A stretch of 20,000 bases of DNA from an uncultured virus (IMG/VR IMGVR_UViG_3300005573_000084) (IMGVR_UViG_3300005573_000084); one strand, 5' to 3'; positions 1 through 18,937 are shown, counted from the first letter of the stretch. Notes: a model not told the origin generated them from the letters alone. Numbers and translations: made by a program.

Positions 1-232
1 GAAGAATGTTACCAATATTTAATTCTTTAGGAACTTTTCCGCATTTTTTACATACTAAAACATCAATTGGTTGAATTTCTTCTTTTCCTGTTGGTGAGAC
101 TAATGGAGAAATTTTTTTAAGAATGATAGCTTCTTCAAAAATCATACTGCCGCAAGAACATGTTACAGTTTTGAAGTTTTTTATCATTTCTGGAGTAATA
201 GTTACTCTTGGTTTTTCAACTTTATTATTCAT
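1..232 (-). CDS. Small Zn-ribbon-like protein, truncated by the window edge (not in ORF track)
   Basis: ATG at 232 opens a frame running off the window: MNNKVEKPRVTITPEMIKNFKTVTCSCGSMIFEEAIILKKISPLVSPTGKEEIQPIDVLVCKKCGKVPKELNIGNIL...; CxC and CxxC pairs; starts a few nt after the stop of 238..639. Confidence 0.75.
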   Translation of the reverse strand, partial: MNNKVEKPRVTITPEMIKNFKTVTCSCGSMIFEEAIILKKISPLVSPTGKEEIQPIDVLVCKKCGKVPKELNIGNIL

Positions 233-237
233 AGATA

Positions 238-639
238 TCAATTTTTTTCATTATTTTTATTTTTTAATGTCAATTCTTTTTCTCTATGTATAGATGAAAA
301 TGTTCCAAGAGGACCATCAATCTCAAGATAACTAACATACCATTTATTAGGATCTATGTTAAATTTCTGAATCTCTCCATTTTCACTAACCTTTATGTAA
401 TATCCCTTTGTTATGTACATGTTCCAATTTACGCTTAAAATGTCCTCTCTTTTTATAAGATTCATATCTTTAAGAAAGTAAGATTTTAATCTTTCCTCAA
501 ATATTACATCTTTAACAAATAGAGGAAAATCAAAATCAGAAGAAGAGCAATCAATTTTAAGAACATACAATTTATTAAGTTTCCTAACATCAACAATCTT
601 TATGTTCTTATGTGTCCAATCAATACTAGATGTCATCAT
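238..639 (-). CDS. Hypothetical protein (133 aa)
   Basis: Intact ORF co-oriented with neighbours, preceded by a TATATAAATA motif; no family motif recognised. Confidence 0.7.
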   Translation of the reverse strand: MMTSSIDWTHKNIKIVDVRKLNKLYVLKIDCSSSDFDFPLFVKDVIFEERLKSYFLKDMNLIKREDILSVNWNMYITKGYYIKVSENGEIQKFNIDPNKWYVSYLEIDGPLGTFSSIHREKELTLKNKNNEKN

Positions 640-699: not shown

Positions 700-1578
700 T
701 TATGCATATATTTTTTCTAAAGACCAATTGATAATATTATTATCAGTTTTTTGTTTAACTGGAACTACTCCATTTAAAATAGGCTCAAATATATTTTTAT
801 ACTTTGGAAGAAATTTTCCAGTTTCATCTATAATAGAAGTATTAAAAAATGGTGTACTGTTTTCAACAAAATCGTATTTAAGCATTTGTTCAACTTTTTC
901 ATAATGATTACTATAGAGATGCATTGAATTGGATATATGCACATATTTTCCTATTTCTAAATCTTTATAATATTTTTTTAAATGAGTAAATATTTGTTGT
1001 TGCAATATGCTAAAAAAGGCAAAATCTGTCATAAACCCTAATATTACATCATTACTTCTCATAGATACTGTCATATTTAGCTTATTATCTCTAATATGAA
1101 AAAGCGCATACATAGTGCAAACTTGATCAGGGTTTAAAAAGTATTGATGATAAGGTTTATTAAAGTGCATAAATGCTTGTCGCGTATCTTTATCTTTAAC
1201 TAATGAGCTAATAACCCACTCATATTGAGTTAAACCGTGTTCATTTTTTTGATTGAATATTAAATTTCCATAAGCAGAATTAACTTCTCCTTTTTCATTT
1301 TCTAATTTTTCCCATAATGATGCATACTTTTTAATAAATGCAGATTTATTTGATCCTGAAAAATAATATAAAATTTCTGCACCAATGTATTTTTCTTTAG
1401 AGCCTCTTACTTCATTTATATAAAGATTTTTAGTTGGATCTTCTACTTCAATTATACAGTTAATAATTTCATTTACTTGTAGTCCTCTTGGTTTGGTGAC
1501 AAACTCGGGATTATTTAATAAATCATTTAGTATATCTTTATAAAGATTGGCTACAAATTTACTCTTATAAACTCTCAT
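700..1578 (-). CDS. Thymidylate-synthase-fold enzyme, most likely dCMP hydroxymethylase/methylase (T4 gp42-like)
   Basis: DQVCTMYALFHIRDNKLNMTVSMRSNDVILGFMTDFAFF and YVHISNSMHLY follow the TS/gp42 catalytic core (Cys codon 1117-1119, RSND). The specificity position holds Asp (TDF, codon 1024-1026) as in dCMP-specific gp42, not Asn as in dUMP-specific ThyA. Confidence 0.8.
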   Translation of the reverse strand: MRVYKSKFVANLYKDILNDLLNNPEFVTKPRGLQVNEIINCIIEVEDPTKNLYINEVRGSKEKYIGAEILYYFSGSNKSAFIKKYASLWEKLENEKGEVNSAYGNLIFNQKNEHGLTQYEWVISSLVKDKDTRQAFMHFNKPYHQYFLNPDQVCTMYALFHIRDNKLNMTVSMRSNDVILGFMTDFAFFSILQQQIFTHLKKYYKDLEIGKYVHISNSMHLYSNHYEKVEQMLKYDFVENSTPFFNTSIIDETGKFLPKYKNIFEPILNGVVPVKQKTDNNIINWSLEKIYA

Positions 1579-1580
1579 AT

Positions 1581-2168
1581 TTATTTTGTTTTTTCTAAAA
1601 ATTGTACTACTTCATTAAAAATATCCTCTTTTTTTCTAAATTTGCCTTTATCATCTACTTTAACTAATAATTTATATGGTATTGTGCTAAATTGATGAAC
1701 TTCTGTAAAAAGATTTATTTCTTTAGTTTTATCAATTAAATTTTGTGAGAAAGATTTTCCGTCATCTATATTTAGAAAAAATTCAGGATCTGCTGTAAGT
1801 GTTATTAAATAAACTATATGTGATGTAAATGCTTTTTCCAAATTAATTATCTTTCTTTTAACAACATCTGGATTTGCATTTCTAAATAATGTGGAATATA
1901 CGTATTCTCCTAAGTGAGATCGATTCCATATCATAATATTTTCATAATATTGATAATCATTTTCTCTATTTAAAAAACTATTATAAAGCTTTATTTCTGA
2001 TCTAAATTTTTTAAATTGAAATCGCAGCGTTTCTTCTGGACTCATTCCTTTTGGAGGTTTCCCAAAATGTCTAATAGTTATATTGTCATAATTAAAGTAT
2101 TCGCAAAGTTCTTTTATTAAAGATGACTTTCCGAGTTGGTCTCCTCCCTCGATAATTATTAGTTTCAT
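1581..2168 (-). CDS. Deoxynucleoside monophosphate kinase (thymidylate-kinase-like P-loop)
   Basis: N-terminal Walker A IIIEGGDQLGKSS; NRSHLGEYVY matches the TMPK DRxxxSxxxY motif; its stop lies 2 nt before the start of the TS-fold gene. Confidence 0.8.
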   Translation of the reverse strand: MKLIIIEGGDQLGKSSLIKELCEYFNYDNITIRHFGKPPKGMSPEETLRFQFKKFRSEIKLYNSFLNRENDYQYYENIMIWNRSHLGEYVYSTLFRNANPDVVKRKIINLEKAFTSHIVYLITLTADPEFFLNIDDGKSFSQNLIDKTKEINLFTEVHQFSTIPYKLLVKVDDKGKFRKKEDIFNEVVQFLEKTK

Positions 2169-2194
2169 ATATTTAAATTTTCATGTATATTTTT

Positions 2195-2220
2195 TATATA
2201 ACTAATGATAAAATTTGTTT
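2195..2220 (-). promoter_or_regulatory. Putative phage promoter AAAC-N16-TATATA
   Basis: Minus strand AAAC AAATTTTATCATTAGT TATATAAAAA, about 27 nt upstream of the kinase start. Confidence 0.4.
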
Positions 2221-2231
2221 TCATTTTTATC

Positions 2232-3455
2232 TTAAAAAAGTGATTTATGCTTATGATTGTATTTTTTAGTATTGTCTTGCATTAAAACTGAATCTTTGTA
2301 AAATTCTCTATTTCCTTTTATTATTTCCACAATTTCATTTGTTATATCTTCTCCTGTACAAACTGGAATATTTTGAGTAATTTTAACATACTCTTTAGGA
2401 CTTTCAAGTTCATAATCGTGAGGTAGCCCCATCATATGCATGTATTCTCTAACATTCATGATTCTATCTTCAACTGGATGAATCTCTTTTCCCATAACTT
2501 CTCCTATAATTGCATATGTATAATCTTTATCTACTTCAAGCACTCTATAATTTATTCTTGAATTTTTTCCTTCTGCTGCTTTTTTTAGAATATGTTCTAC
2601 ATTTTTTGTAACAATGAGCGATCTTTCATTTTCCGGTAAACTTTTTTGCCACTCTAAGAATTCAACTAACCAATCTCTTCTTTTAAGATATTCATATGTT
2701 GTAAGATGAGGTTTAAAATTATTAAGTTCTTCTCTCCATTTTTCTCCATGTTTAATCTTAAGAAACTTATAAATCTCATACTTAGTAATGTCTACTTCAT
2801 TATGAACATATTCATTTTGATGTTTTGCTTCTTTAGGAATCTGAGATAGATAATCTTTAAATTTAAGATATGGCTTATCATAATAAGATAAAATAGGAGC
2901 ATAATCTCCTTTATAAAATATTCCAAAAGTTCTTGGCCTAAATTGAGGTATTCCATGTTTTAATGTATTTGTTTTATAGAATGTTATAGAGTATCCATGT
3001 TTCCTTGCAATATCTATAAGTTTATTTCTTACGTCATTTCCGGAATTAGTAAAAAGAGTAGGAGCATTCTCAAATGAATACACTATTGGTTGAAGATTAT
3101 TTAAAATAAATTCTGCAGATTTATACATCCAATCATTTGGAGGCGCTGAACCTCTTGTTCCTGCTTTTCTTTGAGCAGCTTGAGATAGACCAGAACATGG
3201 AGGTATTCCGCAAAAAATATGAATCTTATTTTTATATTGTTCTGTTATTTCATCTATATTAATATTTTCGTCATCTATTTGATAATACGGAACATTATAA
3301 TTATGTTTTTGTAAATATCTTAGATACAATTTGTCATTATTATAAAATGGTTTCCATGAAAATATGACGCTTGGGAGTTCATTTAAAATCTTTGATGCTC
3401 CTAATGAAAATCCTCCAGCTAAAGGTATGATAGCGCCGTGTTTTATAAATTGCAT
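2232..3455 (-). CDS. C5-cytosine DNA methyltransferase homolog with divergent SAM-binding motifs
   Basis: Catalytic motif IV GIPPCSGLS, motif VI FENAP, motif VIII PQFRPRTF, motif IX RIMNVREYMHMMGLP. Motif I is IIPLAGG (canonical FxGxGG) and motif X is ITQNIP (canonical GNA/SV). Confidence 0.8.
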   Translation of the reverse strand: MQFIKHGAIIPLAGGFSLGASKILNELPSVIFSWKPFYNNDKLYLRYLQKHNYNVPYYQIDDENINIDEITEQYKNKIHIFCGIPPCSGLSQAAQRKAGTRGSAPPNDWMYKSAEFILNNLQPIVYSFENAPTLFTNSGNDVRNKLIDIARKHGYSITFYKTNTLKHGIPQFRPRTFGIFYKGDYAPILSYYDKPYLKFKDYLSQIPKEAKHQNEYVHNEVDITKYEIYKFLKIKHGEKWREELNNFKPHLTTYEYLKRRDWLVEFLEWQKSLPENERSLIVTKNVEHILKKAAEGKNSRINYRVLEVDKDYTYAIIGEVMGKEIHPVEDRIMNVREYMHMMGLPHDYELESPKEYVKITQNIPVCTGEDITNEIVEIIKGNREFYKDSVLMQDNTKKYNHKHKSLF

Positions 3456-3482: not shown

Positions 3483-3800
3483 CTATTTTATTTTTAGAAG
3501 TGAATCTACAGTTTCATTTTGTTTTTTGATAATAGAATCTGTTTTTTCTAGTTTCTGAAGTTTTTTAAGATATTCGTTTCTTTTTATTTTAGATTCTTTA
3601 GATGAATCAACGGTAATATAGATAATCTTTTTAAAAATTGTATCATTTTCTTTTTGATATGATAAAGTTTTTACATTAATGATACTATCTTTATATTTTT
3701 CATTTTTTTGTTGAGCAGATGAATTTAAAGTACAAGAATTAAATGATAAAATTATAGTTATCATTATTAAAATTGTGATAAAGAGATTTGAAGTTTTCAT
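3483..3800 (-). CDS. Lipoprotein, candidate outer-membrane spanin (true start probably 3800, not 3845)
   Basis: From the second Met: MKTSNLFITILIMITIILSFNS-C, i.e. basic N-region, hydrophobic core and lipobox Cys; lies directly downstream of a single-TM coiled-coil protein. Confidence 0.55.
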   Translation of the reverse strand: MKTSNLFITILIMITIILSFNSCTLNSSAQQKNEKYKDSIINVKTLSYQKENDTIFKKIIYITVDSSKESKIKRNEYLKKLQKLEKTDSIIKKQNETVDSLLKIK

Positions 3801-3810
3801 AATATGAATT

Positions 3811-4074
3811 TTATTTATTTTGCATGAACTGTATGATTTTTCCATTTAATTCTTGTTGTTTGTATAAGATTTCATTTATTTTTTCTAATTGTTTTGTATT
3901 TTCTTGAAGTTGTATACTTAATTGTTCTATTTTTTCTTCCATCTTAGTTCTTTTTATTGTTTCTGATCTTATCCATCCAATAGTAGAACTCAAAAACATT
4001 ACAATAAGAATTATGTCTTTTATAAACGTTGTGTATTTTTTCCATTGCGATTCTTTAATCTGGTTCATTTTCAT
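3811..4074 (-). CDS. Single-TM coiled-coil membrane protein, candidate inner-membrane spanin
   Basis: One hydrophobic segment IILIVMFLSSTIGWI followed by a heptad-rich tail MEEKIEQLSIQLQENTKQLEKINEILYKQQELNGKI. Confidence 0.5.
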   Translation of the reverse strand: MKMNQIKESQWKKYTTFIKDIILIVMFLSSTIGWIRSETIKRTKMEEKIEQLSIQLQENTKQLEKINEILYKQQELNGKIIQFMQNK

Positions 4075-4375
4075 CTTTATTTTTTTTATCTATAAAATAT
4101 TTTTTATATGCGTTAAGATCTTCTGCATCAGAAAATAATCCATCCTTTACGCCTTCACTGTAAAATTTAGAATTCTTTGATAAATTTTGAAGAACTAATT
4201 GTTTTCTAACAGCTAAATTTTTTGAATGCTTTTTTTCTATTGCTAATCCTAGTAAGAATTCTTTTTTATCAACATCGTCGAAAGATACAATTGGCTCTAC
4301 TCCTCCTTTAATTATTTCACTTTCAGATAGGTTAGAAACAAATTCTGCTAAAGATTCAGATATAAATTTTTTCAT
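4055..4375 (-). CDS. Hypothetical protein, DUF5661-like (degenerate), possible head-packaged protein
   Basis: IKGG...D..E...G..IE.KH...YS spacing recalls DUF5661 (GxxVExEH...DHLxExPxYY) but with putative metal ligands replaced; leader MKKFISESLAE. Confidence 0.45.
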   Translation of the reverse strand: MKKFISESLAEFVSNLSESEIIKGGVEPIVSFDDVDKKEFLLGLAIEKKHSKNLAVRKQLVLQNLSKNSKFYSEGVKDGLFSDAEDLNAYKKYFIDKKNKDENEPD

Positions 4376-4419: not shown

Positions 4420-5586
4420 TTAGTTATCTTCTTTATATTCTAGAATTTTACCGCTATAAGTTCTTAATTGATACACTCCATTTTTATTAGATACAATATT
4501 ATCTGATATATCAATTTTTCCATATTCTGAATCTAAAATTAAATGTGGAACACACATTCCAGAAGTGTAACCTCTTAATCCTCTTATTATCTCAATTCCT
4601 TTTTTTATAGAAGTTCTAAAATGACTAGTTCCTGATACACGATCAGCAATATACAAATAATATGGCTTAACGCGAATCATTATTAATTTATGCATAAGCT
4701 TTTTCATCGTTTCCACATTGTCATTAACGTTTTTTAATAAAACAGTTTGAGATCCCAATGGAATTCCATTATCAACAAGAATATCGCATGCGCGTTCAAC
4801 TTCAGGAGTTATTTCATCGGGATGTGTAAAATGAATGTTAACAAATGCTTTATATTTTCGTAAAATTTTAGCTAATTTAGAAGTAATTCTTTGGGGTAAA
4901 ACAACTGGTACCTTTGTACCTATTCTTAAAAGCTCAACGTGATCAATACTTCTTATTTCTTTTAACAAATATTCAATATTATCATCATCCATCGTAAACG
5001 GATCACCTCCAGATATTAATACGTCTCTTACTTCTGTATGATTTCTTATATATTCGATTGCATTATTCCATGAACTTTTAGGTATAGATTTTCTATTAAC
5101 TAATCTGCTTCTTGTACAATAACGACAATTTGAAGAACAAAAATCTGTAACTAAAAATAAAACTCTATCTGGATATCTATGAACTATGCATTCTACTGGG
5201 CTTTGTTTTTCTTCTGATAATGAATCTTCATATTCATTTTCAGTTACAATAAGTTCATTGCTTGTTGGAATAACACATTTTCCAATTCCTGAATTTAATG
5301 ATGTTATTAAACTCGCATAATATGGAGTTATTCTTAGAGGTAAATTAATATCTTCAGATAACTCATATTCTGAATTTCCAAATATTCTAATTAATTCTTC
5401 ATAAGAAGTTATGCTATTACGAATTTGCCATTTCCAATCATTCCAGTCTTCTTGAGAAATAGTTGGATAAAATTTATTCTTAAAATTTTTTGTTTTTTGA
5501 GAAACCACGAGAGGAGGCTCATCGCCATTAGAAATTTCATCTAAATTATTAGAGTGAGAATTTTTAGAAAAATTACTTTGATTCAT
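4420..5586 (-). CDS. kamA: KamA-family radical SAM protein (lysine 2,3-aminomutase-like)
   Basis: WNDWKWQIRN, PLRITPYY, HRYPDRVLFLVTDFCSSNCRYCTRSR (CxxxCxxC), SGGDP, LRIGTKVPVVLPQRIT, HPDEIT, QTVLLKNVND, PYYLY..D...GTSHFR, LRGYTSG; putative PLP Lys in DSEYGK. Confidence 0.92.
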   Translation of the reverse strand: MNQSNFSKNSHSNNLDEISNGDEPPLVVSQKTKNFKNKFYPTISQEDWNDWKWQIRNSITSYEELIRIFGNSEYELSEDINLPLRITPYYASLITSLNSGIGKCVIPTSNELIVTENEYEDSLSEEKQSPVECIVHRYPDRVLFLVTDFCSSNCRYCTRSRLVNRKSIPKSSWNNAIEYIRNHTEVRDVLISGGDPFTMDDDNIEYLLKEIRSIDHVELLRIGTKVPVVLPQRITSKLAKILRKYKAFVNIHFTHPDEITPEVERACDILVDNGIPLGSQTVLLKNVNDNVETMKKLMHKLIMIRVKPYYLYIADRVSGTSHFRTSIKKGIEIIRGLRGYTSGMCVPHLILDSEYGKIDISDNIVSNKNGVYQLRTYSGKILEYKEDN

Positions 5587-6096: not shown

Positions 6097-6321
6097 TTAT
6101 TTCTTAAACATGTATTTCTTAAGAAGCTCAACAATATCTTTATAGCCTTTTTCTGTTGCAAACCTTAAAGCTTCATTATCATTAGCATGAACATTTGCTC
6201 CAGCTTTAAGAAGAAGCTCAACAACATCTTTATGACCATATAATGAAGCCAGTCTTAAAGCTTCATCATCATTAGCATGAACATTTGCTCCAGCTTTGAT
6301 AAGAAGTTCTATAAAATACAA
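6097..6321 (-). pseudogene. Ankyrin-repeat gene 3' fragment, apparently separated from its 5' end by the TnpB element
   Basis: ELLxKAGANVHANDxEALRxA...GxKDxVELL repeats; the ORF starts at a TTG mid-repeat only about 20 nt after the tnpB stop. Confidence 0.65.
6121..6310. repeat. 90-bp tandem repeat (about 2.1 copies) encoding 30-aa ankyrin units
   Basis: aagaagctcaacaa at 6121 and 6211, aagaagttct at 6301; cttaaagcttcat(t/c)atcattagcatgaacatttgctccagcttt repeated at 90-nt spacing. Confidence 0.9.
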
Positions 6322-7744
6322 AATTCAATAAATTAAATAATTAATCATAAAAAATATAATTTAAAACCATACTTTTATGACTTGAATTTTGCTGAAAAAC
6401 ATTAAATTTATGCAAGCATTCATTTAATGAAACTCGATATTTCAATTTCAAGTTTTTTATTTCAAGAAAGAATTCTTTCCAATCTTTATATTTAGTAGCC
6501 ATTTCCTTCCACTGGTGTTTTACCAATAGATCTGGATAGAATGCTTTCTTGTTTTTCTTTATTTTGTACTCAAAACCACGTCTTGCGATTTCAATTGAAG
6601 CATTTACTGCATCTGTATAGTTATGTTGTAAATTTCCAATGAAACTTGAGTAAGCTGGATTAACTGAATAAAGTTTAATTCCTTCTACGTTTAATCTCTT
6701 ATTTAAATTGTTGATGAATAATTCTCTTTTCCAAAGATTTTTGTTCTTTCTATTTGATATTTTTATCGCTGAAGAGCCTTTAAAATGTAAATCTTCAATA
6801 AAAACTGATTTACAATTAAAGTATTTTGCTAGATTTGTAATCGATTTACTTATTTCATAGGTTTCAAACTTTAATTTGTTTTGAAAATATTTCATTCTGT
6901 CTGAATTTGAACTTAGTTTTTCATTTAAAATTTTGTTAAAAATAGGTTTCAAACTAAATTCTTGAGTATAGATAACATTTTCATTTTCTAAAACTGAAAT
7001 TCCAATTGTATCTGGATTTAAGTCAATACCTAAATATCTGTTTTCGTTTAACTTAACTTCTTTTTCATTTTTAAATTCTTCAAATGAAATATAGACATTT
7101 TTTAAATCAAAACGAATTGAATAGGTATAGCCCCTTTGATTAGATTTAACTTCATTAAGTTGTTGAAGTTTGAATAATTCATTCTTTATATTGTTTCTTA
7201 AATTAGGCAATTTTAGCTCAATGTGCTTTTTCCTATTTAATTTAAAGATGATTTGATTGTTTTCAATCATATCTAACTTAAATGAACGATTTCCTTGTTT
7301 AAGTTCTTCACCTTGAATATTTATAGGACTTAATCGTTTAAGTTGATACTCTTCCTTTGATATTTTACCTCGACATCTCAAAATGAAATTTTTCTTTTCT
7401 CCAAATATAACTTTTTTATTTCCAGAACGTGCATGAATTGCTTTGCCATCTTTGATTGCACATTGAACCAACCAAGAATTTAATAAATTAATGTTTTTCA
7501 ATGATTTAGTTAAATTTCTAACTTCTTTTTCTGTTTTGCCCTCAAGAAAACGATTATAACTATACCTAACAACAGATGAATATTGTTTAAGTATAGGTAT
7601 TAAATCTTCAGATGATTTGTATGGAAGCTTAATCGTTTTCATGCTATCATTACTTTAACTGTATAAAACTTATATATTATAAAATATATATTAAAGAAAA
7701 TTATATTTTTTTACGTTTTTATCACAAATTATTGTTAATTTTTA
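6311..7744 (-). mobile_element. Non-autonomous tnpB-only element (IS200/IS605 or IS607-related); ends inferred
   Basis: Contains tnpB only, no tnpA. Removing 6311..7744 joins a 5' mini-ORF ending ...AAT TTG AT to A GAA CTT CTT, restoring an in-frame ankyrin ORF; the left flank ends in TTGAT. Confidence 0.5.
6341..7642 (-). CDS. tnpB: TnpB-family RNA-guided RuvC endonuclease (Zn-finger-less type)
   Basis: N-terminal YSSVVRYSYNR helix; RuvC-I YLGIDLNP, RuvC-II VFIEDL, VNPAYSS and RuvC-III YTDAVNASIEIARRG. D-E-D triad present; no CxxC pairs between RuvC-II and RuvC-III. Confidence 0.85.
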   Translation of the reverse strand: MKTIKLPYKSSEDLIPILKQYSSVVRYSYNRFLEGKTEKEVRNLTKSLKNINLLNSWLVQCAIKDGKAIHARSGNKKVIFGEKKNFILRCRGKISKEEYQLKRLSPINIQGEELKQGNRSFKLDMIENNQIIFKLNRKKHIELKLPNLRNNIKNELFKLQQLNEVKSNQRGYTYSIRFDLKNVYISFEEFKNEKEVKLNENRYLGIDLNPDTIGISVLENENVIYTQEFSLKPIFNKILNEKLSSNSDRMKYFQNKLKFETYEISKSITNLAKYFNCKSVFIEDLHFKGSSAIKISNRKNKNLWKRELFINNLNKRLNVEGIKLYSVNPAYSSFIGNLQHNYTDAVNASIEIARRGFEYKIKKNKKAFYPDLLVKHQWKEMATKYKDWKEFFLEIKNLKLKYRVSLNECLHKFNVFQQNSSHKSMVLNYIFYD

Positions 7745-7798: not shown

Positions 7799-9574
7799 TT
7801 ATCTTAAAATTTTTCCACTCCATAATCTATATTCTTCAAATATATTATTGAATAAATTGTGGATACATTTTGGAGTTAACTCCATAAAAAGTGAATAATT
7901 GTTATCTTCAATTGCTCTAAATGCATTAAGCTTATCTTCATTTTCTAATTCTCCGACATTTAGATCTTTTTGAACATTTATTCTTCCTCCCATGACTTCT
8001 TCTTCAAAAAATAATTGAATGGCTATTTCTGATTTTTTACCCTTATCTGTAATGATTACTATTGGTTCAAATCTTGGACGACAGAGTTCGAATATTTCCT
8101 TTAAGCTCCATGTTGATAATAAACTATAAAAAGGAATTAATTCTGGATTGTTTTCAGATAAAGATTTCATTTGAGCTTCTATTAAATTATCACTTGGATA
8201 AAATTCTGTTCCTATTAAATTATGTTTATTACTTATGCTCATTAAAACAACAGGACAATTCCAATTTTTATTTATAATTTGAACATTATTCATTTGTGAA
8301 ATTGTAAATGGCTCAAATGATGTAATATAAACTGCGCACTTTGTTTCTCCTCTTTTTGCGTTTGATATTATTGGTTCAAATGTTTTTTGTATTGAGGATA
8401 TAACTCTCATGTTATCTATGTCTGTATATTTTCTCTTCTTTATTTCATCTATAACAACATTATCAGATCTAGATTCAAATAATTGTTGATCTTTAACTTC
8501 TTTAAAGTTATTAATATAATTATTTATGAGATTCACATAATTATTAAATTTTTCAACAATTGTTTCATTTAATAAACCGTGAGGCTTTTTAGTCTTTCTT
8601 AATGATGATAAAAAAACTTTAAATAAAGCTTCATATATAGGAGCTTTATTAATTAATTCTAATGTTTCTTCGTTTGTTATTAGTTTTTTGTTTAATTTTC
8701 CGTTATATCCAAATTGTAAAGGAGTGAGATATTTTTCATCCAAATTCTCATCAATTACTTTATTTTTACAGTAATTGTTAAATATATTATAAATGATATT
8801 TAAATATAATTCATCTTTATTTTCAGCTTCTAAAATAGGAATATTATAATTTGATAAAAAATTACTAAGATCTGTTATAATTATATCATAAAAATCTCTA
8901 GATTCATTTTCTTTTTCATAAGCTTCATTAAGTAATTCAAATTCATAAGAGATTATCTGAGCTAATTTATCTCCAGATTTAATGATAATTCCTTCTATAA
9001 TATCCTCTTTAGAATATGATGCTCCAAGAGTCTTTTTTATCATTTCAGAGAAAGTTAACGTTTCTCCATTATATTGTTTTGTGTCATAAGCTATAAGAAG
9101 TCTTTTTTGTTCATCTGTTAATTTTCCCTCAAATAAAATTGGAGGTCTCCCCATACATAATATTGAAGCCCAATTTTTTACTTCATCATAATCTAAAGAT
9201 TCTACAATTTTATTGTAACTATTTCTTTTTGTAACATCTGTTAAAATATATTTTGGAATTTTAGAATAAGGAATTCTTAAAGGTCTCTCTGTAGGAGTAT
9301 AATAAAATCCAAAAAAATATCCTTCAGGAATGTTAACATCTTTAGTAATTAAAGGAATTTCTGTAATAGCATCTTCATATATGTCTGTTAAAACTCTTGA
9401 AGGTAAATCGATTTTTTCATTATTTTTTTTATAAAAGATATATTGATCTCCTTTTTTCTCGAAGATTAATCTAAAAGTATCAATCTTTTCAGTGATTATT
9501 ACATTTTCTTTAAGAAAATTTTCAACATATTTTGGTCCTCTTTTATCTAAGACCTCATATAATCTATTAATCAT
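7799..9574 (-). CDS. Fusion of an RNA-ligase-like nucleotidyltransferase domain and a HIGH-type (cytidyltransferase-like) domain, motifs degenerate
   Basis: N-terminal ITEKIDT (motif I KxDG), PPILFEG, IEGIIIK (motif IV EGxxxK); C-terminal AVYITSFEPFTISQ at the GxFxPxHxGH position; tail AIEDNNYSLFMELTP resembles DVLNNDYENFKTNYP of 18299..18937. Confidence 0.6.
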   Translation of the reverse strand: MINRLYEVLDKRGPKYVENFLKENVIITEKIDTFRLIFEKKGDQYIFYKKNNEKIDLPSRVLTDIYEDAITEIPLITKDVNIPEGYFFGFYYTPTERPLRIPYSKIPKYILTDVTKRNSYNKIVESLDYDEVKNWASILCMGRPPILFEGKLTDEQKRLLIAYDTKQYNGETLTFSEMIKKTLGASYSKEDIIEGIIIKSGDKLAQIISYEFELLNEAYEKENESRDFYDIIITDLSNFLSNYNIPILEAENKDELYLNIIYNIFNNYCKNKVIDENLDEKYLTPLQFGYNGKLNKKLITNEETLELINKAPIYEALFKVFLSSLRKTKKPHGLLNETIVEKFNNYVNLINNYINNFKEVKDQQLFESRSDNVVIDEIKKRKYTDIDNMRVISSIQKTFEPIISNAKRGETKCAVYITSFEPFTISQMNNVQIINKNWNCPVVLMSISNKHNLIGTEFYPSDNLIEAQMKSLSENNPELIPFYSLLSTWSLKEIFELCRPRFEPIVIITDKGKKSEIAIQLFFEEEVMGGRINVQKDLNVGELENEDKLNAFRAIEDNNYSLFMELTPKCIHNLFNNIFEEYRLWSGKILR

Positions 9575-10567: not shown

Positions 10568-11548
10568 ATGAAAAAGTTTATTTTAATTATTTTTATACTA
10601 TTGATGGGATCGATAGTTTTATCTCAGGAAAATACGAGAAAATTATCTGATTATGAAAAGTATGTAATGGAAAAAGAAAAACAAAAAAACAGTGGACAGA
10701 AAAATGACACAATCATTATTTATGACACATTAGCTGTAAATTCAGCAACAGAAAAAGAAGAAAACGATGATTTATATTACACTCCTCGCAAAAGTAATAA
10801 TAAATCTAATAATCATAATTATGTTAACACAAAAGATAACTCAAGTGAAAAAGTAATAGTTCAAAATAATTATTATACCAACTATTATGATTATGATGAT
10901 TTTTGTTACTCATTTGTAATATATCGCTTAAACGGTTTCTATTATTATAGATATTTTGGTCCATTTTTTTATGATTACGTAAGGTTTTATTGGTATCATC
11001 CTTGGTATCATCCTTGGTATCATCCTTGGTATAATGCATTTTACGATTGGTATTACTTTTCATATTATCCGCATTATTTAAACTATTCTATATACTTTTA
11101 TTCATATAAACCACACTATATAAACTATGCTCATAAAACTATAATTCATAAAAACATTGAGGTGGACAGAAGAACTCGTAATGTCATTGGAATAAGAGAT
11201 GATAAAACAAATATATCAAATTCTCGAAGACCTATAACAACACAACAAATAAATAGAAACTCTTATAATTCACAAAGAAGTCAAGAACGCACTTATGAAA
11301 GAAAACCTGCAGAAAGACGCTCATATCAACCAACATATAATCGATCAGAAGTAAATTCTACACCAGTATATAATAGTGGAAGAAGATACTCAACAAATAG
11401 CTATAATGATTCTAGATCTTCATATTCTAATACTAGAAATATAGATAGAAGTTATTCTTCAGGTACTCTAAGATCTTCTAATGAATATTCTAGAAATGTA
11501 AATAGAAGTTCTTATTCACCTACATCTACAACTAATAGGAGAAGATAA
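10568..11548 (+). CDS. Secreted/envelope low-complexity protein (signal peptide, DDLYY motif, Y/W-rich middle, R/S/N-rich tail)
   Basis: MKKFILIIFILLMGSIVLSQ signal peptide; ENDDLYYTP; aromatic-rich block with WYHP repeats; disordered Arg/Ser tail ending NRRR. Architecture recalls Bacteroidota hypothetical envelope proteins. Confidence 0.7.
   Translation: MKKFILIIFILLMGSIVLSQENTRKLSDYEKYVMEKEKQKNSGQKNDTIIIYDTLAVNSATEKEENDDLYYTPRKSNNKSNNHNYVNTKDNSSEKVIVQNNYYTNYYDYDDFCYSFVIYRLNGFYYYRYFGPFFYDYVRFYWYHPWYHPWYHPWYNAFYDWYYFSYYPHYLNYSIYFYSYKPHYINYAHKTIIHKNIEVDRRTRNVIGIRDDKTNISNSRRPITTQQINRNSYNSQRSQERTYERKPAERRSYQPTYNRSEVNSTPVYNSGRRYSTNSYNDSRSSYSNTRNIDRSYSSGTLRSSNEYSRNVNRSSYSPTSTTNRRR
10991..11032 (+). 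repeat. 12-bp tandem repeat TGGTATCATCCT x3.5 (WYHP repeats)
   Basis: tggtatcatcct tggtatcatcct tggtatcatcct tggtat read directly. Confidence 0.95.
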
Positions 11549-17037: not shown

Positions 17038-18294
17038 TTATTTACTCCAACCCTTCACCACATCAGAACTAAAATTAGCATATGAAAATTCATATCTATC
17101 TACAAGTTTAACAACATTTCCGTGTCTATCTGATACTACAAAACCCTCTTGATTTGTGGATACAAATTTATCATCTTTCATCTTTAAATACGCTTCAAAG
17201 TTACTTAAATTATTTAATTTTTTGATAAATAATTTTTTTAATTCTGTTAATTTTAGTATTAATTCTATTATACTTTCAAATGTTTCTCTGTGTCTTTCAA
17301 TATTTTGTATTAATAGATCTCTATTTTCCTCTAAAGCTTTTTTAGATTTTTCAGTTTTCTTTGATTCAATATCTTTTTCAAATCTCCTATTCATAAAATC
17401 TATAAATTTATCTAAAATTTCAGCTGGAACCTTGCTTTGTATATTTTCTCTTATAAGAAGATTTTGATAAATAGTAAATAAACTTATAAGTTCCTCATTT
17501 TCTATAATTTTAGTATACTCGTCATTTTCATAAAGTTTATTTGCTATATCTTCTATTATTCTAATGCCATCTTTAAATTCTTCTGTTTCTTTACTAGTAA
17601 ATGTTACTATTCCCGCTAAAGATGTAATATAAGGATCTATCATAAAAACTTTAGCGTTTTCACTTAATTCAGATACTCTTGTATCATATGATGCATATAT
17701 ATTACTTATTGAATCTCCTTTATATCTTGTATGCCAAACTATTCCAATATCAGTATTAGCTATTCTCCTACCAATATCAGAATCCTTTGGAACTTTATAA
17801 ACTATAGTATTTGGATGAAATGAATAGTATTTTTCGTCTTCTTTTAATGTATATTTGTCATATAAAAAATCTCCTTGCCATATCTCATTTTCAGGAATAT
17901 TTATGGATGGCAAATAATCTAATAGCATTTTTAATTTTCGAGCTAAATCAGTTTGTTCTCTGTAATAATTATCAACATCTTGATAGTTATACATCACTTT
18001 TCTATTTTTTGCAAATAAAGCTTTTATTGCTATTCCATTTTCTCCTAATCCTGGAAATTTCGACCAAGCAAAAATTGCCGGAGCACCATCTATTTTAAAA
18101 GATAAACTAATTTTATCCTCTTCTGTATTACTCTTCAATGTATTATATAATCTCTTAAGTATATTTATTGCAAACTTTATTCCACCCTTTCCTCCTGTCA
18201 ATACAAGATCTTCTATATGAGTCATATGTATATTTACACGAGGAGTTACGTTTTCTTTTAATAGCAACCAATCTTTATATGATATAAATTTCAT
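17038..18294 (-). CDS. DUF6267-like protein with ATP-dependent ligase/nucleotidyltransferase motifs
   Basis: NIHMTHIEDLVL N-terminal signature; motif I SFKIDGAP (KxDG), motif III WQGDFLY, FHPNTIVY, IGIVWHTRY, motif IV EGFVV, motif V VKLVDRYEFS. Confidence 0.7.
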   Translation of the reverse strand: MKFISYKDWLLLKENVTPRVNIHMTHIEDLVLTGGKGGIKFAINILKRLYNTLKSNTEEDKISLSFKIDGAPAIFAWSKFPGLGENGIAIKALFAKNRKVMYNYQDVDNYYREQTDLARKLKMLLDYLPSINIPENEIWQGDFLYDKYTLKEDEKYYSFHPNTIVYKVPKDSDIGRRIANTDIGIVWHTRYKGDSISNIYASYDTRVSELSENAKVFMIDPYITSLAGIVTFTSKETEEFKDGIRIIEDIANKLYENDEYTKIIENEELISLFTIYQNLLIRENIQSKVPAEILDKFIDFMNRRFEKDIESKKTEKSKKALEENRDLLIQNIERHRETFESIIELILKLTELKKLFIKKLNNLSNFEAYLKMKDDKFVSTNQEGFVVSDRHGNVVKLVDRYEFSYANFSSDVVKGWSK

Positions 18295-18298
18295 TGTT

Positions 18299-18937
18299 TT
18301 ATTCTTCAGTTACATTTAATTTTAAAAGATTCCATATTTTCTTTATATCTTTTTCAGAGTACCCTGGATAATTTGTTTTAAAATTTTCATAATCATTGTT
18401 AAGAACATCTCTTCTTAAAATTGAAGCAGATATAGGCATTCTATCAAATTCATCTGTTCTTCCTTTATAAATAAGAGGTTCGGCATCAACACTAAGTTCT
18501 ATGGCCTTAACATCGTTGGGAAGAGTTTTCACATATTTTCCATCTGGTTGAAAATCTTTAACAAATTTTAATACTCTCTTATAATCTTCTCCATTACTCT
18601 TTTTTGATGCTGCTAATGCATATGTTCCGGGCTCTGCAGTTTCCATATATTTATATGAAGCTAAAATTGGAGAAGGATAATTAACTGCCTCTATTGATAC
18701 TCTATCAAATGGTTGTAATAATTCTTTGGCTATTTTTAGAGCTAGCTCTTGGCCTATTCCATTTCTAATTCCAGGGCCTATTAAAACTTTTACTTCTTTT
18801 ACATTTGGATGAGCTAAATATCTTTTAATTAAATCTATATGCGCTCCAGTTATAGGTTTAAATCCTCCTGGAAATAATATAGTAATATTATCAGAAATTG
18901 ATTCGTTTAACCAATCATTAAAACCTATAAAACGCAT
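18299..18937 (-). CDS. HIGH-superfamily nucleotidyltransferase (cytidyltransferase/NMNAT/PPAT-like)
   Basis: ILFPGGFKPITGAHIDL (GxFxPx[HT]xxH) and ISASILR (ISSTxIR-type) motifs; stop 4 nt before the DUF6267-like start. Confidence 0.8.
   Translation of the reverse strand: MRFIGFNDWLNESISDNITILFPGGFKPITGAHIDLIKRYLAHPNVKEVKVLIGPGIRNGIGQELALKIAKELLQPFDRVSIEAVNYPSPILASYKYMETAEPGTYALAASKKSNGEDYKRVLKFVKDFQPDGKYVKTLPNDVKAIELSVDAEPLIYKGRTDEFDRMPISASILRRDVLNNDYENFKTNYPGYSEKDIKKIWNLLKLNVTEE

Follow-up and report, generated by a model that had tools for sequence, protein, structure and literature searches.

The window analysed here, a 20,000-nucleotide stretch of DNA from an uncultured virus (IMG/VR IMGVR_UViG_3300005573_000084), carries at its left end three consecutive minus-strand open reading frames (ORFs), separated by intergenic gaps of 63 and 2 nt, that encode a homologue of the DNA cytosine-C5 methyltransferases (C5-MTases), a P-loop kinase and an enzyme of the thymidylate synthase (TS) fold, and that are considered below as a candidate phage module for the C5 modification of cytosine. 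The DNA is AT-rich (21-29% G+C) and phage-like, with nearly all genes on the minus strand, and it also encodes a gp32-type single-strand binding protein, a UvsW-like helicase, a primase, an amidase and a TnpB-like gene; a scan for promoters and terminators gave results at the chance level in such AT-rich DNA. The three genes, described as consecutive and co-oriented by the initial annotation of the stretch, are confirmed as follows.

2232..3455, minus strand: C5-cytosine-methylase-fold enzyme of the 'PLxGG / QN' phage clade, 407 amino acids (aa); PF00145 DNA_methylase, E value 2.2e-22
1581..2168, minus strand: thymidylate-kinase-like P-loop kinase, probable kinase of 5-hydroxymethyl-dCMP (5hm-dCMP), 195 aa; PF02223 Thymidylate_kin, E 0.0076
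700..1578, minus strand: TS-fold enzyme, probable dCMP hydroxymethylase (5hm-dCMP synthase), 292 aa; PF00303 Thymidylat_synt, E 3.7e-24

Relatives of the homologue were collected by a scan of IMG/VR with family patterns, which found 307 stretches encoding one. The best 80 of the 307 were surveyed, and three named phages, cyanophage S-TIM54, Pseudoalteromonas phage vB_Psh_XG4 and a 462-kb uncultured phage, were added to give 83 loci, 82 of them with a family member, since the 462-kb phage matched the TS protein only. ORFs were called in the 83 loci and the window (1841 in all) and grouped by BLASTP single-linkage clustering, both the calling and the clustering being crude. The order homologue, kinase, TS-fold gene recurs in related viral contigs, and the arrangement is therefore not a matter of chance. 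When the 26 ORFs of the window were compared with the 83 loci by tblastn, the TS-fold protein was found in 35 and the kinase in 24, on the same strand as the homologue and at a median spacing of 265 bp; the relatives at 45-71% identity keep the order of the window, namely small ORFs, homologue, kinase, TS-fold gene and two small ORFs. Homing-endonuclease-like ORFs (NUMOD3, GIY-YIG, TnsA-like, DUF7487) are repeatedly inserted among the three genes (in loci L014, L008 and other close relatives), which accounts for the variable spacing in an otherwise fixed gene order.

The probable enzymes of nucleotide supply

The closest solved structures to the TS-fold protein are those of the T4 dCMP hydroxymethylase (1B49/1B5E, E 4.5e-22) and the CMP hydroxymethylase MilA (2e-20), with ThyA only at about 1e-11, and the NCBIfam ThyA equivalog models all score far under their cut-offs (e.g. 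66 versus 327 bits). In the HMMER alignment to the T4 enzyme, the segment 'PDQVCT ... MRSNDVILGFMTD' sets the catalytic Cys (C146 position) of 'QVCT' on T4 'MCT' and 'GFMTD' on T4 'GFRND', with an Asp at the position of E. coli N177. A second Asp occupies the L143 position, three residues ahead of the catalytic Cys ('PDQVC'), a Thr follows the Cys directly at the H147 position, and D169 is retained as Asp (RSND); thus the residues of canonical ThyA at N177, L143 and H147 are replaced by D, D and T, and the marker of the RB69 gp48-type 5-hydroxy-dCMP synthase, an Asn at the D169 position, is absent. In the excerpted text of PMC13326640, N177D is associated with dCMP preference, L143D/E with a hydroxymethyl instead of a methyl product through water access, and D169N with the newly found 5-hydroxy-dCMP synthases; positions 177 and 147 have been tied independently to modified phage DNA (PMC8670742, excerpt). 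By the active-site criteria of PMC13326640 the enzyme is classed as neither a ThyA nor a 5-hydroxy-dCMP synthase; it is probably not a dCMP methylase of the Xp12 type and most likely a dCMP hydroxymethylase. The proposal of the initial annotation that an Asp at the specificity position marks a dCMP-type, gp42-like enzyme is thus borne out by the alignment with T4 gp42 and by the signature residues.

The TS cluster comprises 37 ORFs, one of them fragmentary, and the 36 informative ones belong to the window, to locus L002 and to 34 loci with a methylase-family member. Asp at N177 and the retained D169 are found in 36/36, and Asp at L143 in 35/36, the sole exception being that of cyanophage S-TIM54, with a PCH-type loop. 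This S-TIM54 gene (L001 5129-5971), annotated as 'ThyA', combines Asp at N177 with a ThyA-like PCH loop without an acidic residue and lies 2 kb from the methylase-family member of the same phage; its residues suggest that it may encode a dCMP methylase instead of a thymidylate synthase.

The kinase carries a P-loop of the EGxDxxGK[ST] type, IIEGGDQLGKSS, and its 195 aa align weakly, end to end, with the thymidylate kinase (TMPK) of P. falciparum (E 0.004), which a profile built from 18 orthologues of related contigs matches at E 7e-6. These 18 orthologues share the EGxD[RQ]xGK[ST] P-loop and an NRS/DRF motif, and the one of locus L014 passes the PF02223 cut-off (29.7 versus 27 bits). PF18723, the helical domain of 5-hydroxymethyldeoxyuridine (5-hmdU) DNA kinases, was not recognised in the kinase of the window with the threshold relaxed to E 1; the reading as a DNA kinase of the 5-hmdU type was therefore set aside, a TMPK signature being present instead. 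The TMPK-like P-loop and alignment fit the nucleotide-supply role that had been assigned to the kinase, and the substrate is most likely the 5hm-dCMP predicted to be made by the TS-fold enzyme. T4-type systems need a kinase of their own, and cognate dNMP kinases were co-expressed in the work of PMC13326640.

The methylase homologue and its cofactor pocket

In the translation of the window, the homologue shows the motifs GAIIPLAGGFSLGA, GIPPCSGLS, FENAPTL, GIPQFRPRT and KITQNIPVCT, so that motif IV Pro-Cys, motif VI Glu-Asn and motif VIII Arg-x-Arg of the C5-MTases are all kept, and motif I F-x-G-x-G-G and motif X Gly-Asn are not. By hhalign, which relates the protein to canonical methyltransferases with a probability of 99.1%, I-P-L-A-G-G aligns to F-A-G-I-G-G of Dcm; the change is a substitution of Phe by Ile/Val and of the first Gly of GxGG by Leu, and the residue that the initial annotation had taken to be missing from motif I is not deleted. 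In motif X, T-Q-N aligns to G-N-A/S, Q361 falling on the Asn of that motif and N362 on the Ala/Ser next to it in three independent alignments (phmmer to HaeIII; the family profile to HaeIII; hhalign to E. coli Dcm and two phage methylases). From these alignments we infer the contacts of L12, Q361 and N362 in the cofactor pocket. The loss of the motif II acid (S33 for the ribose-binding Glu) was also considered and dropped, hhalign placing N40-[D/E]41, preceded by a six-residue insertion, on the canonical 'SE/NE'.

Residue conservation was counted over 257 family members of 340 aa or more, and the catalytic residues C87, E129, R173 and R175 proved invariant (257/257 each). The family motif I is I/V-P-L-x-G-G (P11 in 246/250, L12 in 248/250) and the family motif X is x-Q-N-V-P (Q361 in 255/257, with Lys in the other two; N362 in 250/257), and canonical GN[AS]V occurs in 0 of 264 family sequences; the earlier description of non-canonical motifs I and X beside conserved PC, ENx and RxR thus holds both for the translation and for the family alignments. 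The homologue is remote from characterised enzymes: with phmmer, no more than two solved chains were matched (E 1.4e-4 and 4.5e-3). Among 5.8 billion proteins searched there were 119 relatives, and a family profile run against 1.84 billion cluster representatives matched 8400 of them at E<=1e-3 and 447 of them at E<=1e-30; the top 150 matches are all full-length, with E below 1e-89. An AlphaFold2 (AF2) model of the homologue (pLDDT 93.1, pTM 0.90) retrieved through Foldseek only C5-methyltransferases, namely ZMET2, MET1, HaeIII, HhaI, DNMT1 and CmoX (8YF3), at 10-16% identity. Of the four longer family members that were examined (598-1462 aa), one has a CXXC zinc finger, the sole additional domain recognised, and the extensions of the four match no neighbour protein. 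By these alignments and profiles, the family is a large, phage-restricted and strongly conserved clade of C5-methylase-fold enzymes with a predicted alteration of the cofactor pocket. No description of the PLxGG/QN clade was found in the literature, although unexamined papers or supplements may hold one; the TET-linked C5-MT clades that Burke et al. (PMC8256090, excerpt) describe as inactive, with motifs VIII-X disrupted, may overlap with it.

According to the excerpt of PMC12783734, the motif X Asn, N304 in HhaI, corresponds in CmoX to Arg350, which binds the carboxyl group of carboxy-S-adenosylmethionine (carboxy-SAM, Cx-SAM); the engineered M.MpeI N374K gains carboxymethyltransferase activity, the host CmoA can supply Cx-SAM in E. 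coli, and CmoA is typically found beside CmoX. Because Q361 stands at this HhaI N304/CmoX Arg350 position, the family is altered at the position that selects the transferred group. The window protein has Gln361 in place of the Arg and IPPC versus the SPPC motif of CmoX, and the CmoA model TIGR00740 matched in 0 of five large records of related phages, of which three are 98-100% complete, while the control genomes responded. The use of carboxy-SAM, which the initial annotation had offered as a non-SAM donor, is accordingly disfavoured, Gln standing instead of Arg/Lys and CmoA being found in 0 of the five large relatives, although a CmoA of the host might still provide it. The TET/JBP model PF12851 had no match in the five large records, a control search being equally silent, and none in the Pfam scans of the loci; a TET route is not indicated, though on a weak negative.

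Linkage in related genomes and neighbouring genes

Whole records were searched for 43 of the 47 loci in which the fetched stretch held a family member and no TS gene, locus L076 being covered in the search of the five large records. A TS gene was found in 2 of 4 and 5 of 39 records, all seven of the Asp type; the five TS-positive records among the 39 are exactly the five of 70 kb or more, and the 34 TS-negative ones are 5-57 kb fragments, 1-22% complete, except for one 27.7-kb contig rated 87%. With the five large records counted in, an Asp-type TS gene is present in 12 of the 12 searched records of 70 kb or more. Eight further Asp-type TS genes share contigs with family members (L084, L085, L094, L099-L103), and every informative non-ThyA TS-fold gene on a contig with a family member has Asp at N177. 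The gene of L094 (G010:C1:9064-9579), in a 389-kb record classed as a provirus, contains one in-frame TGA within the match. Four of the five large records, those of the jumbo relatives G006, G007, G008 and G010, also hold a canonical ThyA (PCH...PFN, E ~1e-86 to 1e-97); the Asp-type copy is therefore not the dTMP source there, but a second, specialised enzyme. The neighbourhood survey proposed with the initial annotation thus links the PLxGG/QN homologues to dCMP-type TS genes, and the outcome that it had named as contrary to its reading, homologues unlinked to dCMP-modifying genes, is not what was found.

The distant homologues (32-41% identity) sit among glycosyltransferase (GT) and sugar-nucleotide genes. 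An NAD-dependent epimerase/dehydratase, of a family present in 47 loci, adjoins them at a median of 4 bp, and 35 loci encode a 420-aa protein that is weakly GT-B-like (Pfam E 2.5e-4 to 3.6e-3); against solved structures, the profile of the latter family gave only a weak fucosyltransferase match (E 0.0078), and a search for it in the five large relatives found none. In 26 loci the 420-aa protein is followed by a 338-aa protein with a DDD motif and H-Y-x-x-G-x-K-K-P-x-W, which we take to be GT8-like; the profile of this second neighbour family matched no solved structure. Also common near the distant homologues are a DegT aminotransferase, a hexapeptide acyltransferase, nucleotidyltransferases, a KDO-8-P-synthase-like enzyme, GT1 and GT2. 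The Asp-type TS gene of vB_Psh_XG4 is followed by a nucleotidyltransferase-kinase fusion, two GT-like genes and the homologue, in that order, and in locus L029 two tandem homologues stand between GT genes (one weakly similar to the alpha-glucosyltransferase, AGT) and are followed by the kinase and the TS gene. In the eight loci of the L031 type, a protein with the PF18723 helical domain adjoins the homologue, near inositol-1-phosphate-synthase-like and FkbM genes; it is not called a kinase, since no convincing Walker A was seen. The complete 405-kb relative G006 keeps the synteny of the window and has, ~12.6 kb from its homologue, an AGT (PF11440) match of 41.7 bits versus a cut-off of 25, the same model finding no match in 14 cellular control genomes.

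Around the three genes, the window holds the following further conserved ORFs.

2..241, minus strand: conserved small ORF with two Cys pairs, running off the window end; tblastn matches in 19 loci, syntenic
238..639, minus strand: conserved small ORF, 133 aa, downstream of the TS-fold gene; tblastn matches in 16 loci; cluster 21, 17 sources
3483-3845, 3811-4074 and 4055-4375, minus strand: three small conserved ORFs upstream of the methylase homologue; clusters 40, 44 and 18
4420..5586, minus strand: KamA-family radical SAM amino-acid 2,3-aminomutase; TIGR00238, 326 bits versus a cut-off of 199

The 2..241 ORF gave no family match in the profile search, and the 238..639 ORF, whose position downstream of the TS-fold gene is constant within the group of the window, none in the Pfam and PHROG searches. 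Clusters 40, 44 and 18, which lie within 3483..4375, were seen in 12, 11 and 19 sources, respectively, and the 4055-4375 ORF is DUF5661-like through its orthologues L027:6466-6801 and L014:8772-9179, which match PF18905 DUF5661. The KamA-family protein scores too low to pass as an equivalog of the Lys, Glu or Arg aminomutases; its gene also stands upstream of the homologue in 10 other loci, and it is possibly a member of the module. A SET-domain protein, absent from the window, is encoded near the homologue in 20 related loci. In known systems, aminomutases of the KamA type and SET-domain proteins act on lysine-type substrates.

Elsewhere in the window, a TnpB-like ORF of 433 aa (6097-7642, minus strand; TIGR01765/TIGR01766 domains), beside a 74-aa ankyrin-repeat ORF, is probably a mobile insertion, since it interrupts a block that is syntenic in relatives. 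A DUF6267 protein (17038-18294, minus strand; E 8e-76) contains 'FKIDGAP', presumably the KxDG motif of nucleotidyl-transferase ligases, and an unannotated 591-aa ORF (7799-9574, minus strand) has a similar 'EKIDTF' near its N-terminus; the two may be ligase-like paralogues, as their motifs suggest. A 212-aa ORF (18299-18937, minus strand) with 'GGFKPITGAH' and a weak pantetheine-phosphate adenylyltransferase match (E 9.6e-4) looks like a nucleotidyltransferase of the cytidylyltransferase superfamily, and PF01467 families related to it occur near the methylase homologue in L029 and L075. The only long plus-strand ORF (10568-11548) encodes a low-complexity protein of 326 aa with a signal-like N-terminus, a Tyr/Trp/His/Pro-rich repeat (YHPWYHPWYHPW) and a Ser/Arg/Asn-rich tail, for which no family match was obtained.

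A proposed pathway, its rivals and known systems

The three genes are read here, with a probability of about 0.5, as a phage module that replaces cytosine with a C5-modified cytosine, the homologue being an accessory that, at a best guess, does not simply make 5-methylcytosine (5mC). As its active-site signature suggests, the TS-fold enzyme would turn dCMP and methylene-tetrahydrofolate into 5hm-dCMP, like T4 gp42; the kinase, to judge from its fold and family, would phosphorylate the 5-substituted dCMP, and host enzymes and the phage polymerase would then incorporate the product into DNA. In at least some relatives the hydroxyl would be glycosylated afterwards, since G006 has an AGT-like glucosyltransferase and the distant relatives have glycosyltransferase and sugar-nucleotide genes. 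The homologue, presumably acting on DNA, keeps the covalent Cys-at-C6 cytosine machinery with a remodelled cofactor pocket and would be a dedicated accessory of 5-hydroxymethylcytosine (hmC, 5hmC) systems; a guess from the linkage and the motif changes is that it may install or exchange a C5 substituent on hmC or on unreplaced cytosines. What can be said most safely is that the TS-fold protein and its neighbouring kinase are predicted to supply 5-hydroxymethyl-dCTP (5hm-dCTP), with the homologue as a conserved accessory of such systems. The intact covalent-catalysis residues, the near-invariant changes at two cofactor-pocket motifs and the genome-level coupling to a C5-filling enzyme speak against an orphan methylase present by accident. 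Of the cytosine hypermodification scheme of the initial annotation, the supply enzymes, the motifs and the linkage are thus retained, the carboxy-SAM donor is kept as an unlikely alternative, and the motif I deletion is given up.

Several observations pull the other way. In 47 of the 82 loci that encode a family member, the fetched stretch holds no TS gene, most of these fragments being rated 1-30% complete, and the survey was limited to the best 80 of 307 matches, on contigs that are mostly fragments. The 27.7-kb contig rated 87% complete (L026/G017) has a homologue but no TS gene, its content being an HMGL-like gene, a CMP-sugar cytidylyltransferase, a GT-like gene and the homologue beside the terminase; if that phage is truly without a TS gene, the substrate of the homologue is not pre-replicative hmC everywhere, which argues against an obligatory hmC substrate. 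A PRA-PH-type nucleoside triphosphate (NTP) pyrophosphatase (dCTPase type) was found in only one of the five large relatives, and complete cytosine replacement is therefore not demonstrated. The kinase of the window scores 16.4 versus the curated 27 bits with PF02223. In the TS-fold enzyme, Asp at N177 alone would equally fit an Xp12-type dCMP methylase, and the hydroxymethyl call depends on one correlated residue. As to the homologue, its fold and all its catalytic motifs are intact and compatible with a plain methylase dependent on S-adenosylmethionine (SAM); the conserved N40-[D/E]41 may be a displaced motif II 'NE', and the Asp after strand 3 (210/257) and the aromatic residue after strand 2 could still hold adenine.

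For the TS-fold enzyme, the names in Pfam, PHROG and NCBIfam, all 'thymidylate synthase', would suggest a phage enzyme converting dUMP to dTMP; with ThyA equivalog scores far under the cut-offs, all three of N177, H147 and L143 replaced (by Asp, Thr and Asp) and a separate canonical ThyA in the four jumbo genomes, this can be given next to no weight. It is also unlikely that the enzyme is not a hydroxymethylase but an Xp12-type dCMP methylase or a synthase of 5-hydroxy-dCMP. The N177D enzymes do include proven 5m-dCMP producers (bioRxiv 2024.12.05.627091, excerpt) and 5-hydroxy-dCMP synthases (PMC13326640, excerpt), but D169 is kept here, versus D169N in the synthases, the residue at L143 is not hydrophobic but an Asp, which T4 gp42 and MilA share (PMC13326640, excerpt), and the top solved relatives are two hydroxymethylases.

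The main competitor concerns the homologue, which may be an ordinary SAM-dependent orphan 5mC methylase, serving anti-restriction or acting on unreplaced C and present by synteny only, while the TS-fold enzyme and the kinase would still make 5hm-dCTP; its chances are put appreciably below even. Dnmt3-type enzymes without the canonical GN still use SAM, and the homologue passes the PF00145 cut-off, matches C5-MTases in fold, keeps every catalytic motif and plausibly keeps the adenine-binding positions. Phage C5-MTs are common, moreover, and many make 5mC (PMC8256090, excerpt). However, Leu for the first Gly of motif I and Gln for the Asn of motif X are nearly invariant among the 257 members, and both changes fall in the part of the pocket that lines the methionine and transferable group (for the Asn/Arg position, the excerpt of PMC12783734), the genome-level coupling to Asp-type TS genes would leave little C5-H substrate, and glycosyltransferase-like genes adjoin the homologue in many lineages. 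A CmoX-like carboxymethyltransferase using host-made Cx-SAM is very unlikely: the change does lie at the exact position that confers Cx-SAM use (CmoX R350, M.MpeI N374K), Lys occurs there in 2 of the 257 members and the CmoA of an E. coli host can provide the cofactor (PMC12783734, excerpt), but 255 of the 257 have Gln and not Arg/Lys, TIGR00740 is absent from the five large related records versus a CmoA that typically neighbours CmoX (same excerpt), no AMP-forming ligase was seen in the annotated loci, and the Foldseek identity to 8YF3 is only 14%.

Under the preferred reading of a module for C5-modified cytosine, the gp42-type enzyme and the kinase are new members of a textbook pathway, and the homologue is an uncharacterised variant. 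A more specific proposal, which we hold tentatively and consider doubtful, is that the PLxGG/QN clade represents a new DNA cytosine-C5 enzyme that would apply covalent Cys-C6 chemistry to hmC or residual C in order to exchange or install a non-methyl substituent, its pocket being remodelled for some co-substrate different from SAM in the usual pose; the 2,3-aminomutase and the SET-domain protein of the relatives could then supply or tailor an amino-acid-derived group in the group of the window. In vitro, C5-methylases without cofactor can add aldehydes or take them off, and can exchange the 5hmC hydroxyl; the PLxGG/QN enzyme, if the proposal is true, would be the natural counterpart of these reactions. 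The clade travels with enzymes that already occupy the cytosine C5 and is altered at the pocket position that made CmoX from a methylase; should its product not be 5mC, a new reaction and probably a new base would be added to phage DNA chemistry, and a tool for site-directed DNA derivatisation could result. The question is directly testable, since Pseudoalteromonas phage vB_Psh_XG4 and the S-TIM5 group of cyanophages, which carry members of the clade, are in culture.

Among known systems, the hmC pathway of T4 (gp42, the gp1 dNMP kinase, alpha- and beta-glucosyltransferases) shares the TS active-site signature, gp42 being the best solved relative, and here too a nucleotide kinase adjoins the TS-fold gene and an AGT-like glucosyltransferase is found in the complete relative. 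However, the kinase of the window is TMPK-derived and not gp1-like, a C5-methylase-fold enzyme, which T4 lacks, is a conserved third member, and four of the five large relatives gave no match to a dCTPase of the PRA-PH type. CmoX of Synechococcus phage S-B43 (PDB 8YF3; PMC12783734, excerpt) is likewise a phage C5-MTase homologue with a catalytic Cys, a substituted motif X Asn and a hypermodification context; it differs in Arg350 versus the Gln, in that motif I is also altered here, and in a structural-alignment identity of 14%, and the present family, with no CmoA in the five large relatives searched and no amide ligase found, is linked to a TS-type dCMP enzyme and not to CmoA. The phage C5-MT/TET/GT clusters (PMC8256090; bioRxiv 2023.12.21.572611, both in excerpt) also place a C5-MTase-fold gene beside glycosyltransferases, epimerases and replication genes, whereas no TET/JBP match was obtained in the five large relatives (the control being silent as well), and the hydroxymethyl group would come here before replication, from the TS-fold enzyme. 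In thymidine hypermodification (5-HMUDK and aGPT-Pplase; PMC8989533), a TS homologue makes a hydroxymethylpyrimidine that is elaborated on DNA, and the L031 subgroup (8 loci) recalls it by the PF18723-domain protein adjoining the homologue; the kinase of the window, in contrast, is TMPK-like and without PF18723, no aGPT-Pplase was seen in the window, and the base would be cytosine, unlike in the thymidine pathways, because the TS-fold enzyme has Asp at N177.

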